Assembly: GCA_013202965.1 (NCBI GenBank) | Contig: JABMQZ010000178.1 | Location: forward strand, 24,344 to 88,343 | DNA: 64,000 nt | Direction: 5' to 3' | DNA from: Bacteroidota bacterium | GTDB lineage: Bacteria; Bacteroidota; Bacteroidia; Bacteroidales; B18-G4 | Shown: positions 3,405 through 36,699 of the stretch, piece after piece | How the letters are laid out: every line of letters starts with the position of its first letter | How positions within the stretch are numbered: position 1 is the stretch's first letter | Notes under the pieces: generated by a model | Told to the model about the DNA's origin: nothing | What the model saw: the letters and a program-made list of their open reading frames with translations, nothing else | Database searches by the model: none | Program-made: the position numbers and the translations under genes

Positions 3405-3441
3405 GAAAGGCCTTTGCTGATATAGTGAAGGCCTTTTTTTT
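3405..3441. terminator. Bidirectional intrinsic terminator hairpin between convergent genes
   Basis: A 9 bp stem (aaaggcctt 3406-3414 pairing with aaggccttt 3428-3436) is preceded by an A-run and followed by a T-run (3434-3441). It sits between the stop of 2281..3384 (+) and metK (-). Confidence 0.65.
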
Positions 3442-3452
3442 GAGGTATGAGG

Positions 3453-3494
3453 CTTCGTTGTTCGTTGTTCGTTATTCCTTATTCGTTATTCCAA
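3453..3494 (-). repeat. Degenerate heptamer tandem array (6 units) spanning the metK stop codon
   Basis: Plus strand reads cttcgtt gttcgtt gttcgtt attcctt attcgtt attccaa. In the metK sense this is GAATAAC GAATAAG GAATAAC GAACAAC GAACAAC GAAG. The last codons of metK (GITNKE*) are encoded by the array. Confidence 0.8.
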
Positions 3495-4794
3495 ACGCTT
3501 CCCTGATCTTCTCTACATAGTCAAGTTTCTCCCAGGCAAAGAAGGTCACCTTTTTGGTGCAGGGTGGCTTGTTGCAGTGAATAAGTTTTCCTGAGTTTTC
3601 AGGATCGTAATGTACTTCCACTTCTTCTTCGAAAGGTTCCCTTCCGAAATGTCCGTAGGTGGCTGTTTTTTTGTAAATGGGGTTTTTAAGTCCAAAACGT
3701 GTGATGATGCCATGAGGTGTGAGGTCGAATAAAGTATCAAGGATTTCAGCGATCCTGCCATCACTCATGATCTTGCCATTCTTATCTGTTACCTTCGCAG
3801 TACCATTGGTATTCACAAACAAGCCAACATGCTCTTTTCGGCCAATGGCATAAGCTACCTGTATCAATGCTTCATCGGCAATGCCGGCAGCGATAAGATT
3901 TTTTGCCATATGCCGCATGGCATAAGCAGCGGAACGGTCAACTTTTGAGGGGTCTTTACCTGAAAAGGCACCACCGCCATGGGCGCCTCTGCCACCATAG
4001 GTGTCAACGATGATTTTCCTGCCGGTAAGTCCGGTATCTCCGTGCGGGCCACCGATCACGAATTTTCCGGTTGGGTTCACAAACAGTTTGAAGTCGCCTT
4101 TAAACAGTTGTTTTACCTTATCTGGAATATCAACACTGTTTTTTACTCTTGGGATAAGGATCTCCCTGACATCAGACTCGATCTTTTTCAACATCTTATC
4201 ATCGTCAGCATCAAAATCATCATGCTGTGTGGATATCACGATCGTATCAATTCTGACAGGATGGTTATCATCATCATATTCAACAGTGACCTGTGATTTG
4301 GAATCAGGGCGGAGATAAGTCATCTCTTTGCCTTCTTTCCTGATTGCAGCCAGTTCCTGCAGGAAAATATGTGCCAGTTCTATGGGCATGGGCATATAAT
4401 TATCCATTTCCCGGCAGGCATAACCAAACATCATCCCCTGGTCACCGGCGCCCTGGTCCTCAGCCTTTTCCCTGTTTACTCCCATATTGATGTCACCGGA
4501 TTGTTCATGAATAGTAGAAATGACACCACAGGAGTCGGCATCGAACTTATATGCTGATTTCGTATAACCGATTTCACGAATGGTATTCCTGACAATATCA
4601 TCAACATTTACCCATCCTGTTGTCCTGACTTCACCTGCACAAACTGCCAGTCCTGTCGTTACAAGGGTTTCACATGCTACCCTGGATTCAGGATCGAGAC
4701 GCAGAAATTCATCCAGCAAGGCATCCGATATCTGGTCAGCTACTTTGTCGGGGTGCCCTTCAGACACTGATTCTGATGTAAATAAGGTTCTCAT
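3472..4794 (-). CDS. metK: S-adenosylmethionine synthetase
   Basis: 440 aa with [27 protein letters not shown] and [19 protein letters not shown], the canonical MetK motifs. Confidence 0.97.
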
Positions 4795-13194: not shown

Positions 13195-13218
13195 ACCATA
13201 TTAGAATATCATATGAAG

Positions 13219-13250
13219 GAAGAGTGGGCGAAAGTTCGCTCTTTTTTTTT
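13219..13250 (+). terminator. Intrinsic terminator after tsf
   Basis: The agagtgggc / gttcgctct stem (includes G-U pairs) has a short loop and is followed by a T9 run (13242-13250). Confidence 0.6.
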
Positions 13251-13299
13251 GGCTGTGGGCCATGGGCGGTAGGCCTTGGGTATTCGTTCCTCTTCCGAG

Positions 13300-13752: not shown

Positions 13753-13840
13753 GGGTTTTGATTTTGGGTTTGCAATTTAGTAAAAAATAAGAGGTTTGCA
13801 AAGAAGCGTCAGAATAAGGGCTGTTGGGGGTTTGGTGTTA

Positions 13841-13972
13841 GATGTTCCACCTCCGCTAACCGCGTGCCGCCATAGCTTCAGCGGTGGCGCAAGCTACGGC
13901 GGACGCGGTGGGTGTTAGGTGAATTTTCGATACTCGATATTTGATATTCGTTTTTCGTTATTCAAAACATGT
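13841..13972 (-). repeat. Composite 3'-end repeat, copy A: heptamer array, conserved 20 nt box and GC-rich hairpin
   Basis: Three exact blocks (13897-13916, 13921-13950, 13951-13972) are shared with copy B at 15651-15729. An ~18 bp stem (ccgcgtgccgccatagctt pairing with aagctacggcggacgcgg) lies at 13858-13908. The array reads gaatttt cgatact cgatatt tgatatt cgttttt cgttatt. Confidence 0.85.
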
Positions 13973-15549
13973 CAATTTATTATAAGCTTTTCTTTAATCC
14001 TCATATTCTCGATTACCACTTCAATCACATACATTCCCGGTATCAAGTTTGACACATCAAGCTTATTGCTTGTCCCTCTTTGATGGATGATTCTTTGCCC
14101 GAGCCGGTTGTAAATGTTAACCTCCTCAATGCTTCCATTGATGCCCGAGATCATGATTTCTGAATGGGCAGGGTTGGGGAAAATTTTAATATCAGATTCA
14201 AAAGTATAATAATTGATATGGCTCGAATTTTCATAAATAATCTTACATATAAATATATCAGTGCCCATATTTGTGGACGTTAAGGACGTATCCCCAAATA
14301 TTGTGGTATTCATAAATGATCCTGTAGCATAAATATCATTGTTGTTATCAATAACACAAGTATTCGTGTAGTAATTCCCGACCTCTATAATGTCCTGTAT
14401 TATCCCTCCATTACTTAATTGCAAAATATGAGATTTAGAATCTAACAATAATGAGTCTCCGATTAAGGCGTCACCCTGAAAATAACAAGTAACATATATT
14501 GAATTATTATCACCAACAATACAATAAGACCGATCCATTGCTGAACTGCCAAATCCTGTTATCCAAAGCAATTCGCCAATCCTATTATATTTTGCAATGT
14601 ATATATCAAATTCTCCATTTGAGACAATGGTGTCACTATTAAAGAAAGCAGTACCGCCGAATATTCCGGTTAGATAGATGTCTTCATTTTCATCTGCAAT
14701 AATTGATGATCCGAGAGCACCCCATTCACCACCTGCTTTTCGTATCCATAATAAGTCACCGGAACTATTATATTTCGCAATAAAAATATCCTGAAATCCA
14801 GAAGAAATTAATACTGTATCATTAAAAACAGCACTATCCTTAAAGTTTCCTGTAAGGTAGATGTTATTAAAATTATCTGAAGTTACTGAAAGCCCCAAGT
14901 CTGCTTCCGCTCCCCCACCTTGATTTATCCATAAGACGTTTCCCTCATTATCTAGTTTTGCGAGAAATATGTCATAATCACCATTTGATGTCAGGCTAGT
15001 GTTGTCAAATATTACAGTATTCTGAAATATGCCGGACAAATAAAGAAAATTATCATTGTCCGTTGTGATTGAATATCCTTGATCTGATCCGGCACCACCG
15101 AACTGTTTTACCCAGTTCAGATTTCCCTCAGTATCATGGTCGGTAATAAAAATATCACATTCCCCTTTTGCTATTAATGTTGTCTCTTCAAAAGATATAG
15201 TATCACTAAAAAAGCCAACTGTATATAAATGACCGTTATTATGCATAATACAAAGGGGGCGATCATATTCCTTTCCTCCATAATCCTTTGCCCAAATAAA
15301 ATTCCCGCTTTTGTCATATTTTGAAATATAAATATCAAACAACCCCTTTGCAATTATGGATGTATTCCCAAACCAACAAGTATCAGAAAAGGTTCCTGCA
15401 CTATAAATAAAATTATCATCGCTGGTAATTGATTGTCCTATATCCGTTCCCATTCCTCCTTCCTGATGGATCCATTTAATTTTTGAGTTCTGAGCACTAA
15501 CAAAGTTGTGGGTAAAGAAAAATGCTAATATGATTACGTAGGCTTTCAT
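13972..15549 (-). CDS. Secreted beta-propeller (SBBP-type repeat) protein with T9SS C-terminal sorting domain
   Basis: 525 aa with a signal peptide. It has about 9 repeats of the pattern DIFIAKYNSSGDLLWIRKAGG / YLTGxF. The C-terminus is KIFPNPAHSEIMISG...PGMYVIEVVIEN. Confidence 0.85.
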   Translation of the reverse strand: MKAYVIILAFFFTHNFVSAQNSKIKWIHQEGGMGTDIGQSITSDDNFIYSAGTFSDTCWFGNTSIIAKGLFDIYISKYDKSGNFIWAKDYGGKEYDRPLCIMHNNGHLYTVGFFSDTISFEETTLIAKGECDIFITDHDTEGNLNWVKQFGGAGSDQGYSITTDNDNFLYLSGIFQNTVIFDNTSLTSNGDYDIFLAKLDNEGNVLWINQGGGAEADLGLSVTSDNFNNIYLTGNFKDSAVFNDTVLISSGFQDIFIAKYNSSGDLLWIRKAGGEWGALGSSIIADENEDIYLTGIFGGTAFFNSDTIVSNGEFDIYIAKYNRIGELLWITGFGSSAMDRSYCIVGDNNSIYVTCYFQGDALIGDSLLLDSKSHILQLSNGGIIQDIIEVGNYYTNTCVIDNNNDIYATGSFMNTTIFGDTSLTSTNMGTDIFICKIIYENSSHINYYTFESDIKIFPNPAHSEIMISGINGSIEEVNIYNRLGQRIIHQRGTSNKLDVSNLIPGMYVIEVVIENMRIKEKLIIN

Positions 15550-15596: not shown

Positions 15597-15729
15597 GGTG
15601 TTCCTCCTTCGCTCCGCTTACGCTTGCGCTGAAGCTTCAGCGTAGGAGCACGGCGGACGCGGTGGGTGTTGAATTTTCGATACTCGATATTTGATATTCG
15701 TTATTCGTTTTTCGTTATTCAAAACATGT
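15597..15729 (-). repeat. Composite repeat, copy B
   Basis: Has the same 20 nt box (15651-15670), the same 30 nt and 22 nt blocks, and one extra heptamer (ttattcg, 15701-15707) relative to copy A. It also contains a 16 nt perfect palindrome (cgctgaagcttcagcg). Confidence 0.85.
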
Positions 15730-15804
15730 TATTTAAACATTTCGTCCGCTTAAATATAATATAAAAAGCATTATAATAAAAATATTATCCATTTTATGAT
15801 CAGC

Positions 15805-31233: not shown

Positions 31234-31269
31234 AGAAACTCAATTAAGGCGTAAAAATATGAAATGATT

Positions 31270-31299
31270 TACCACTTTTTACCACTTTTTACCACTTTT
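31270..31299 (-). promoter_or_regulatory. Predicted MraZ operator: three exact 10 bp direct repeats
   Basis: The plus strand has TACCACTTTT three times. In the mraZ sense this is AAAGTGG+TAA three times, 37-66 nt upstream of the mraZ GTG. A -7-like box TATTTTTA (31252-31259) lies between the repeats and the start codon. Confidence 0.65.
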
Positions 31300-31523
31300 T
31301 ATCAATAATTGTTACAGTTTTTATCAACAAAATGTTAATATGTCAGAATCAGCCTTTGACGCGTTGTACAGGGCCGGGCTTCTTAATTGGCAAATATTCA
31401 GATATTTGTAAATATCATGTCTGGTATTTTATGGCCTGCTTATAATCATGAGAATTTGCGTATTTTTGTATTATGAACAAGCCGAAGATGTCACTTGTTT
31501 ATGAGTGAAAGAGAACTTGAAAA

Positions 31524-33915: not shown

Positions 33916-34010
33916 GACTTTATTGCTTGAATCAGTTGATTCGATGTTAGGTTCAGGGTGCCGGATACCAGATACAGGGAAAAGAACAGGGTCCATTCGG
34001 CAATTTATTC

Positions 34011-34128
34011 AACACCCACTGCGTCCGCCGTAGCGAAGCGTAGGAGGAACACTATCTTCACTCATCCAACCAGCAACCAGCTTGCCCGACCGTAGCGCAG
34101 CGAAGGCGGGTAACCAGTAACCAGAATA
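34011..34128 (+). repeat. Composite repeat, copy C (opposite orientation to copies A and B)
   Basis: The box aacacccactgcgtccgccg (34011-34030) is the reverse complement of the copy A/B box with one mismatch. It is followed by two CCGTAGCGnAGCGnAGGnGG sub-repeats and short heptamer runs (aaccagc x2; taaccag x2) that end at the stop codon of the biotin-carrier gene. Confidence 0.75.
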
Positions 34129-34458
34129 TCATTCCAACTCAATTAAAACCTGATCTTTCGCCACAATATTTCCGGTTTTGGCATTTACTTTTTTCACAAC
34201 ACCTTCAAGGGGGCTCAGGATCTGGTTTTTCATCTTCATAGCATCAAGGACCAGAAGCAGGTCGCCTGCCTTGACTTTCTCTCCTTCTTTCACACTTACT
34301 TTTCGGATGGTACCCGGCATAAATGCAAGGACCATTTTAGGGTCTTTTGCTTGATATACTTTTCGTTTCTGAAATTTTTCGGTCAGAAGGGTCCTGTATT
34401 TGAAGTACTCAATATTAAGGGTCTTCAGTTTGCCTGAATATTTGTCGTCTTTTTTCAT
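34129..34458 (-). CDS. Biotin carboxyl carrier (biotinyl/lipoyl domain) protein
   Basis: 109 aa. The biotinylation motif AMKM occurs in LLVLDAMKMKNQI. Confidence 0.85.
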   Translation of the reverse strand: MKKDDKYSGKLKTLNIEYFKYRTLLTEKFQKRKVYQAKDPKMVLAFMPGTIRKVSVKEGEKVKAGDLLLVLDAMKMKNQILSPLEGVVKKVNAKTGNIVAKDQVLIELE

Positions 34459-36197: not shown

Positions 36198-36285
36198 AGA
36201 TTAAGGGATTAACAGATTAACGGATTAACAGATTAACGGATTTGCGGATTGACGGATTTGCGGATTAACAGATTTGCGATTTAAC
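36198..36285. repeat. Octamer tandem array, 11 units (RGATTAAC / GGATTTGC)
   Basis: Units are agattaag ggattaac agattaac ggattaac agattaac ggatttgc ggattgac ggatttgc ggattaac agatttgc gatttaac. The array ends 18 nt before the ATG at 36304, in a divergent intergenic region. Confidence 0.9.
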
Positions 36286-36303: not shown

Positions 36304-36654
36304 ATGAATATAGAAGATCTTAGAGCATACTGTCTTTTAAAGAAAGGCGTTACGGAAAGTTTTCCTTTTAATGAGACCACCCTTGTTTTTAAAGTCATGA
36401 ACAAGATGTTTGCACTTACAGATCTGGAAGGAGAGCTGAGCGTGAGCATTAAATGTGATCCGGAACTTGCGATCAGTCTGAGGGAACAATATACCGCCGT
36501 AAGGCCCGCCTGGCATTTCAATAAAAAGCATTGGAATAATGTGCTTATTGATGGCAGTGTCGATATTTCACTCATCAAAGAGTGGATCGATCATTCCTAT
36601 GAACTGGTGGTGAGTAAGCTGCCGTTAAAGGATAGAAAGGCGTTGGAAAGTTGA
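36304..36654 (+). CDS. MmcQ/YjbR family protein
   Basis: 116 aa. MNIEDLRAYCLLKKGVTESFPF...LVFKVMNKMFAL...WHFNKKHWNNV fits the YjbR family pattern. Confidence 0.8.
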   Translation: MNIEDLRAYCLLKKGVTESFPFNETTLVFKVMNKMFALTDLEGELSVSIKCDPELAISLREQYTAVRPAWHFNKKHWNNVLIDGSVDISLIKEWIDHSYELVVSKLPLKDRKALES

Positions 36655-36699
36655 TATCAGATATCAGATATCAGAGATCAGAAATCAGAATTTGAGAAT
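36653..36699. repeat. Heptamer tandem array (GATATCA x3, GAGATCA, GAAATCA, then degenerate units)
   Basis: The array starts inside the TGA stop of the YjbR-like gene. It fills the whole 45 nt gap up to the stop codon of the convergent small membrane protein gene. Confidence 0.9.

Follow-up and report, generated by a model that had tools for sequence, protein, structure and literature searches.

Stop-proximal heptamer repeats with the units GGGAATC or GGGGA(T/C)T have been published for Xanthomonas and Nostoc PCC 7120, where they are mostly transcribed and have no established function (Rehm et al. 2015, PMC4692102). Heptamer direct repeats (TAACTGA and others) have also been described in Beggiatoaceae, Cyanobacteria and five Bacteroidetes by MacGregor (2015, PMC4679880), who noted repeats overlapping stop codons and suggested a link with gene rearrangement. 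Among long simple-sequence repeats (LSSR), the same paper states with reference to Mrazek (2007), heptamers predominate. Stop-proximal heptamer repeats as such are already known from these studies (PMC4692102, PMC4679880); what is new here is the lineage, the A-rich GAA-type units, one particular 42-nt module and a MetK C-terminus shown to have been rewritten. The phenomenon, poorly understood and known from cyanobacteria, Xanthomonas and Beggiatoaceae, is here seen to shape the ends of genes in an environmental Bacteroidales clade as well.

The stretch of DNA analysed here, which we call the window, is 64,000 nucleotides (64 kb) long. Its proteins have homologs at 80–96% identity in metagenome-assembled genomes (MAGs) named Bacteroidales or Bacteroidota; it also encodes type IX secretion (T9SS) C-terminal sorting domains and contains a division and cell wall (dcw) gene cluster, and together these features place the organism among uncultured Bacteroidales. 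The MetK protein has an exact match on an 85-kb JGI metagenome contig, Ga0335112_10529058. No tRNA or tmRNA genes were found in the window. A first-pass annotation had reported five heptamer arrays in this DNA, and Tandem Repeats Finder (TRF) recovered every one of them in place. Pfam agreed with the gene names proposed for MetK, the beta-propeller (SBBP) protein with a Por_Secre_tail domain, FtsZ, the biotin/lipoyl carrier and YjbR, and also identified DUF6132. The arrays, and the stop codons read from the sequence, are as follows.

3454..3491, minus strand: metK array, unit TTCGTTA, 5.4 copies (TRF), GAATAAC/GAACAAC in gene sense.
3474..3472, minus strand: metK stop codon TAA, inside the metK array.
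13926..13963, minus strand: heptamer array A, 5.4 copies (TRF), GAATAAC/GAATATC type, 3' of the SBBP gene.
13974..13972, minus strand: SBBP gene stop codon TGA, 8 nt before array A.
15676..15720, minus strand: heptamer array B, 6.4 copies (TRF).
34067..34128, minus strand: biotin-carrier block, two 2-unit arrays flanking a diverged variant, at about 34090-34109, of the GC-rich module described below.
34110-34124, minus strand: biotin-carrier array 1, GTAACCA, 2.1 copies (TRF), CTGGTTA in gene sense.
34067-34081, minus strand: biotin-carrier array 2, a second short array, CAACCAG, 2.1 copies (TRF), GCTGGTT in gene sense.
34131..34129, minus strand: biotin-carrier stop codon TGA, 4 nt before the array.
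36653..36689, plus strand: yjbR array, GATATCA, 5.3 copies (TRF), about 6.5 units up to 36699 when degenerate ones are included.
36652-36654, plus strand: yjbR stop codon TGA, which forms the beginning of the yjbR array.

As first described, four of the arrays abut or overlap stop codons and the fifth, array B, lies past ftsZ, namely 157 nt beyond the ftsZ stop and 126 nt ahead of the SBBP start; it corresponds to array A plus one extra GTTATTC unit. The stop codon of the DUF6132 gene (36700-2) is located 10 nt beyond the end of the yjbR array, which thus fills the 45-nt convergent spacer. At 5.3–6.4 copies, four of the window arrays comprise at least three head-to-tail 7-nt units (TRF). The biotin-carrier array, with 2 units, is at chance level if taken alone, and is counted because its GTTACTG unit, in about 8–9 copies, follows the same GC-rich module in another genome.

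Repeats of other periods were also observed. A period-8 array, GATTAACG in 9.5 copies (36199..36285, plus strand), lies upstream of yjbR in the divergent region between this gene and the carboxyltransferase gene; it is related repeat DNA with a period of 8 rather than 7, and is missing from the orthologous region of a 96%-identical relative, L025 (related loci are designated by L numbers). A perfect period-10 repeat, TTTACCACTT in 3.4 copies (AAGTGGTAAA on the mraZ strand), occupies 31268-31301, 35–70 nt upstream of mraZ, and looks like a candidate for the direct-repeat operator to which MraZ binds in its own promoter.

That the period-7 arrays are an artefact of chance or base composition has, in our judgement, a negligible probability, and for arrays of about 3.6 units or more this explanation is refuted. 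Over 147 kb, comprising the window and related loci, 51 period-7 arrays were detected versus 2.5 in shuffled sequence, and 28 versus 0 among arrays scoring at least 40. In a second test, intergenic segments only were shuffled 100 times with dinucleotides preserved: the intergenic DNA of the window contained 8 arrays versus a mean of 0.17, that of the whole clade 40 versus 0.87, and none of the 100 shuffles was as high in either case. In favour of chance, the scores of the two short arrays (34067 and 34110, 2 units each) are of the size seen in shuffles. Period 8 showed a smaller, mild excess and period 10 a mild one as well, the remaining periods being near background.

The location of the arrays was examined with mechanically called genes, which agree with the existing gene calls on these contigs. 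In the window and its relatives 67 arrays were intergenic and 7 coding, and arrays made up 8.4% of intergenic DNA. Their association with stop codons exceeds chance, as had been anticipated: when each array was allowed to fall uniformly within its own intergenic region, at loci not chosen for having arrays, 12 of those scoring at least 40 lay at most 10 nt from a stop versus 3.9 expected (p about 1e-5), and under a stricter, conservative null, with each intergenic region treated as one block and the 50 nt upstream of starts barred, 13 of 23 regions were stop-abutting versus 9.7 expected (p = 0.03), both p-values being optimistic because many of the tested loci are syntenic and therefore not independent. 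Near start codons, the corresponding count was 2 versus 1.6 expected. Sorted by intergenic class, arrays occurred in 8 of 16 convergent, 14 of 54 tandem and 0 of 17 divergent regions (window and relatives), and in 3 of 4, 4 of 17 and 0 of 5, respectively, in the window alone. Arrays persist almost only between a stop codon and the terminator or next promoter, a stretch that we take to be transcribed, presumably as 3' UTR, and are not tolerated in coding sequence or divergent promoter regions.

In several of these respects the arrays resemble the repeats described by Rehm et al. (PMC4692102), being 7-nt tandem units that are over-represented, intergenic and under-represented between divergent ORFs. 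However, the latter are G-rich, G-quadruplex-capable and dominated by one consensus per genome, whereas here many units coexist, mostly A-rich (GAA-N-A-N-N) or G/T-rich, in a Bacteroidales host; a G-quadruplex calls for a tract of at least three G in each unit, and only GGGTGTT-type arrays have such tracts. As in the arrays described by MacGregor (PMC4679880), those found here are intergenic, several heptamers can share one region as they do in Bacteroidetes, and they are missing from close relatives with the same gene order. In the Beggiatoaceae genome BOGUAY, on the other hand, repeats are found mainly just upstream of starts (PMC4679880), while the present arrays cluster at stops and show no excess over chance next to start codons. 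Period 7, non-coding location, dispersion and variable copy number are likewise common to the cyanobacterial STRR (Mazel 1990) and the LSSR (Mrazek 2007), both cited in PMC4679880/PMC4692102. Indeed, the attributes of the LSSR/STRR class, that is, tandem units, a period-7 excess, non-coding location and copy-number polymorphism between relatives, were all found, although STRR in the strict sense have a cyanobacterial host and the STRR1-3 consensus, and our units are different ones in a Bacteroidales host. On the best reading, the arrays belong to the heptanucleotide simple-sequence class together with STRR, LSSR and the Xanthomonas GGGAATC repeats. CRISPR could be ruled out, since there are no spacers.

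The most direct effect of an array on a gene product was found at metK.

3472-4794, minus strand: MetK gene, 440 aa, ending ...AFGITNKE.
3475..3486, minus strand: four array-derived codons, T-N-K-E, appended to ancestral ...AFGI.

Close homologs of MetK (79–92% identity) are almost all 436 aa long and end in ...AFGI or ...AFGL, and in relatives the metK stop comes directly after GGA-ATA/ATT/CTT with the array immediately behind it. Comparison with the 440 residues in the window indicates that the ancestral stop was lost and that the frame runs four codons into the array, whose third unit supplies the new TAA. The stop and the last six metK codons had been assigned to the array in the first-pass annotation; the stop does lie inside it, but G-I is ancestral and only T-N-K-E is new. 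The related suggestion that arrays can alter protein C-termini holds for the window, where AFGI* became AFGITNKE*, and also for L022, in which MetK ends in ...ALGYGR* and a GGCTATG array (5.4 copies) spans the stop, a second, independent rewriting of the tail. Annotators should expect small lineage-specific C-terminal extensions, as well as assembly breaks, at heptamer tracts. An observation of the same kind was made in L004 (6449-6487), where a holin-like gene (Pfam PF07332) has its stop overlapped by a GAAGTCT array of 5.6 copies and its last codons (K-rich, then S-E-V) extend into the repeat, so that the C-terminus is shaped by the array.

Such cases could suggest that the arrays are contingency tracts, in which changes in unit number switch C-termini as a regulated form of bet-hedging (phase variation). 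The metK stop and tail within an array, the array-encoded MetK tail of L022 and the variable unit numbers agree with this proposal. We nevertheless regard it as very improbable, because four of the five window arrays follow the stop codon, where gaining or losing a unit leaves the protein unaltered; phase-variable tracts are located in promoters or in 5' or internal coding sequence. Moreover, the residues affected in MetK come after its conserved end AFGI/L, the genes concerned are housekeeping rather than surface or restriction genes, and the metK array showed no strain variation, being identical in two samples.

The claim that the arrays are dynamic stood up on comparison of relatives. Besides the one-unit difference between arrays A and B, the yjbR array has 3 units in L025 versus about 6.5 in the window, the neighbouring carboxyltransferase being 96% identical, and L016 and L017, with identical MetK proteins, differ just past the stop by a 21-nt duplication and a 20-nt GC palindrome. 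Array length also differs at yqeY, where the 3' arrays preceding one and the same bidirectional terminator measure 0 nt in L022, ~45 nt in the window (degenerate), ~110 nt in L016 and >200 nt in L019. At the other extreme, no arrays were found in L020 (72% MetK identity) or L024 (83% MetK identity), L026/L027 (92% carboxyltransferase identity) have zero period-7 arrays in 21.6 kb, and L023 contains mostly period-8 repeats; single sites lack arrays in L022 (yqeY) and in L025/L026 (biotin carrier). Absence from close relatives limits the feature to a sub-clade and implies that no particular gene depends on it. Clean natural experiments are available in orthologous sites (0, 3, 6 or more than 15 units), in the filled and empty composite sites described below and in the two independent rewrites of the MetK C-terminus; they could be used to ask why the unit is 7 nt, why stop codons are involved, and whether there is any effect on 3' end formation. 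The palindrome in the post-metK-stop array of L017 is a perfect one (CCTGCCTGCCGGCAGGCAGG, about 2170-2190, not in L016), and L004 has further small GC hairpins (CCTCGTGGCTTGCCGCGAGG, twice, in inverted orientation).

Wherever a terminator can be recognised, it comes after the arrays, of which one to three different ones separate it from the stop. This order was seen at metK in the window, L018 and L019, and is clearest at yqeY.

3406..3436, no strand assigned: terminator-like hairpin, -12.4 kcal/mol, z -2.3, downstream of the metK array.

The hairpin lies between convergent genes, is flanked by an A-run and a T-run and is usable in both directions; a simple terminator scanner missed it because its loop exceeds 8 nt, and reported no terminator after arrays A, C or yjbR. 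Three arrays had been described as followed by a hairpin. The metK hairpin does resemble an intrinsic terminator, but the remaining ones lack a T-run and are GC-rich repeat modules. The arrays themselves are un- or weakly structured and lack the GC stem-loop and U-run of an intrinsic terminator. The bidirectional terminator between EF-Ts and yqeY (AAAAAAAAGAGCG...CGCTCTTTTTTTT, window 13195-13299) is conserved in the window, L016, L018, L019 and L022; its EF-Ts side never has arrays, and on its yqeY side they extend over 0 to more than 200 nt. In L018 (18054-19126), the same succession of two arrays occurs behind each of two tandem TfoX_C-domain genes and behind the urocanase gene, one of GAACAAG type at the stop and one of TTCGATG type next, then ~50 nt to the following start, and the pattern appears to have been duplicated along with the gene.

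This arrangement raises the possibility of a functional 3' UTR element, with A-rich unstructured arrays selected in the mRNA, where they could act as a spacer holding the terminating ribosome at a distance from the terminator hairpin, offer a landing site to a single-strand RNA-binding protein, or modulate mRNA decay or the loading of Rho. Stop-abutting arrays are purine-rich in gene sense in 15 of 18 cases (p = 0.008) and have A>T in gene sense in 15 versus 6 (p = 0.08), with GAA-N-A-N-N units recurring behind many different genes. Such an orientation preference counts against neutrality, because a purely neutral DNA process predicts none, though the purine bias may simply follow the general sense-strand purine excess of this genome. 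The order of stop, arrays and terminator at metK and yqeY in several lineages and the lack of arrays in divergent regions point in the same direction, as does the array at the metK stop, which is present in all eight array-bearing lineages despite changing unit sequence (the stop of the neighbouring EF-Ts gene never bears one); its persistence could reflect selection or may be that of an inherited, self-renewing seed. Against a function stand the same genes without arrays in relatives (yqeY in L022, the biotin carrier in L025/L026, metK in L024/L020), a single site ranging from 0 to more than 200 nt, the heterogeneity of the units (A-rich, G/T-rich, C-rich), no consistent stop-triplet or ARN phasing as judged from the sequence, and no match to any Rfam family. 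On balance a functional element seems to us unlikely. Two specific versions of it were rejected: arrays as suppliers of stops in all three frames, which is true for GAATAAC and false for GAACAAG, TATCGAA and GATATCA, and Hfq-type ARN phasing, which is impossible with a 7-nt period.

We lean towards regarding the arrays as neutral or selfish heptanucleotide simple-sequence DNA, in places with a small GC-rich repeat nested in it, that is probably generated by slippage and tolerated between stop and terminator, most likely without an essential function. Arrays would arise and turn over by slipped-strand mispairing, as suggested by the gain and loss of 7-nt units, the 21-nt duplications and the homogenisation of units, and would have proliferated in one sub-clade of uncultured Bacteroidales. 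They would expand until meeting coding sequence, hence abutting the stop and sometimes overrunning it. Given that 7 is not a multiple of 3, the reading frame shifts from each unit to the next until all three have been passed through, and a unit with a stop triplet, as in metK, would provide a new stop within 21 nt at the cost of a few changed C-terminal residues. If the arrays are neutral repeat DNA alone, which we deem the most likely outcome, their interest is for specialists.

Arrays A and B and the biotin-carrier block have an additional feature, which the first-pass annotation had missed while correctly recognising the arrays: all three belong to a dispersed composite and adjoin a GC-rich module with the core ACGGCGGACGCRGTGGGTGTT. 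The 42-nt module, GTGTTCCTCCTTCGCTTCGCTACGGCGGACGCAGTGGGTGTT, is bounded in every copy by direct GTGTT, which could belong to the element itself.

13843..13916, plus strand: GC-rich module copy A, with an internal palindromic insert; long hairpin, -51 kcal/mol, z -5.4.
15598..15670, plus strand: GC-rich module copy B, with a diverged palindromic insert; hairpin weaker than in copy A.
34011..34052, minus strand: GC-rich module copy C, basic 42-nt form GTGTTCCTCCTACGCTTCGCTACGGCGGACGCAGTGGGTGTT.

The 64-kb window contains 3–4 copies and one MAG at least 3 with the exact core. Scans of public collections with the core detected it in at least four Bacteroidales MAGs (7 exact-core matches in Bacteroidales MAGs) and in two metagenome contigs, one of them identical to a MAG locus; these two were the only real matches of the metagenome scan, which did not recover the window's own contig, and viral contigs scanned for either module half gave no match. 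Heptamers surround the module: GTGTTGA/GTGTTGG adjoins it on one flank, arrays of variable type on the opposite one. Units from the window recur beside it elsewhere, TCGATAC-type in ~5 units in L009 and the GTTACTG array mentioned above in L010, and at a non-orthologous site L009 has both the module and about 30 nt of TTCGATA array in common with copies A and B. At six of eight independent module loci, an unrelated real gene, with Pfam domains, stops 0–45 nt before the module. The composite is thus dispersed over non-orthologous gene ends in several genomes.

Basic modules fold at -13 to -20 kcal/mol, with pairing inconsistent among copies. A conserved RNA structure was considered and rejected: some copies accommodate a 12-bp hairpin with a C(UACG)G loop, but one of its pairs is disrupted in the most frequent variant and diverged copies adopt other folds; with the right half set by the search pattern, covariation is uninformative here. 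Rfam 15 gave no match at the gathering threshold in the window, and only noise at an E-value threshold for the module regions and five MAG loci.

Evidence that the composite is an insertion came from the convergent spacer between the biotin-carrier gene and engB, which measures 213 nt in the window (33916-34128), 23 nt in L025 (2603-2625) and 0 nt in L026 (11979-11980); the extra ~190 nt in the window consist of two module copies with heptamers and are absent from both relatives. This comparison of filled and empty sites revealed no clear target duplication, and no terminal inverted repeats were seen in the element. Likewise, the SBBP/T9SS-tail gene (13972-15549) is flanked by direct composite copies A and B (13840-13975 and 15598-15735), and the adjacency of ftsZ and yqeY in L018 and L019 indicates that this gene is an insertion as well.

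These observations bring in a very small non-autonomous mobile element of the SDR, REPIN or MITE kind, formed by the 42-nt GC module and its flanking heptamers, which would insert near stops and seed or carry arrays, its copies being recombination substrates for gene gain. The proposal concerns A, B and the biotin-carrier block, excludes the metK and yjbR arrays, and is compatible with a neutral or a functional reading alike. In its favour are the near-identical module at non-orthologous gene ends in at least four MAGs besides the window, the module plus array that L009 has in common with A and B, the direct GTGTT bounds, the filled and empty sites, the SBBP gene between direct copies, and the occurrence of a different GC palindrome within an array of L017 and not of L016. 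However, no transposase, terminal inverted repeats or unambiguous target-site duplication were found, the copies sampled are a handful (the 7 exact-core matches), the viral contigs scanned lack the module, the right half owes part of its apparent conservation to having served as the search pattern, and arrays lacking the module are left unexplained. Mobility of the composite is in our view a real but somewhat doubtful possibility.

Comparable elements are known from cyanobacteria. Elhai et al. (2008, Genome Res 18:1484) reportedly described small dispersed repeats (SDR) that lie within tandem heptamer tracts of Nostoc; these are said to be 21–27 nt long, GC-rich and hairpin-capable, and to differ in presence or absence between relatives. 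The module found here is similarly a short, GC-rich, hairpin-capable dispersed element in heptamer arrays, but it is 42 nt long, its host is a Bacteroidales and its mobility is deduced from one comparison of filled and empty sites; to our knowledge its sequence is unrelated to those of the Nostoc SDR. REP and REPIN sequences are also extragenic GC-rich palindromes at gene 3' ends, and copy A, an inverted doublet with a long hairpin, resembles them, whereas the basic module is only weakly palindromic. REP and REPIN families number hundreds of copies per genome and are accompanied by a cognate gene for a REP-associated tyrosine transposase (RAYT). Going further, one may imagine an undescribed ultra-small mobile element of Bacteroidota that homes to stop-proximal heptamers, and/or a functional GAA-type signal in the sense strand of 3' UTRs. 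Both are improbable in our estimation. If true, the former would imply that module copies mediate cassette-like gene insertion, as for the SBBP gene between A and B, and the latter would represent a functional GAA-array signal in a phylum lacking Shine-Dalgarno-led translation.

The neighbourhood of copies A and B varies in other relatives too. At the ftsZ–yqeY junction an AAA_14 ATPase gene is present in L016 and a histidine kinase gene in L022, and the junction, to judge from the gene orders compared, is probably a hot spot of gene gain.
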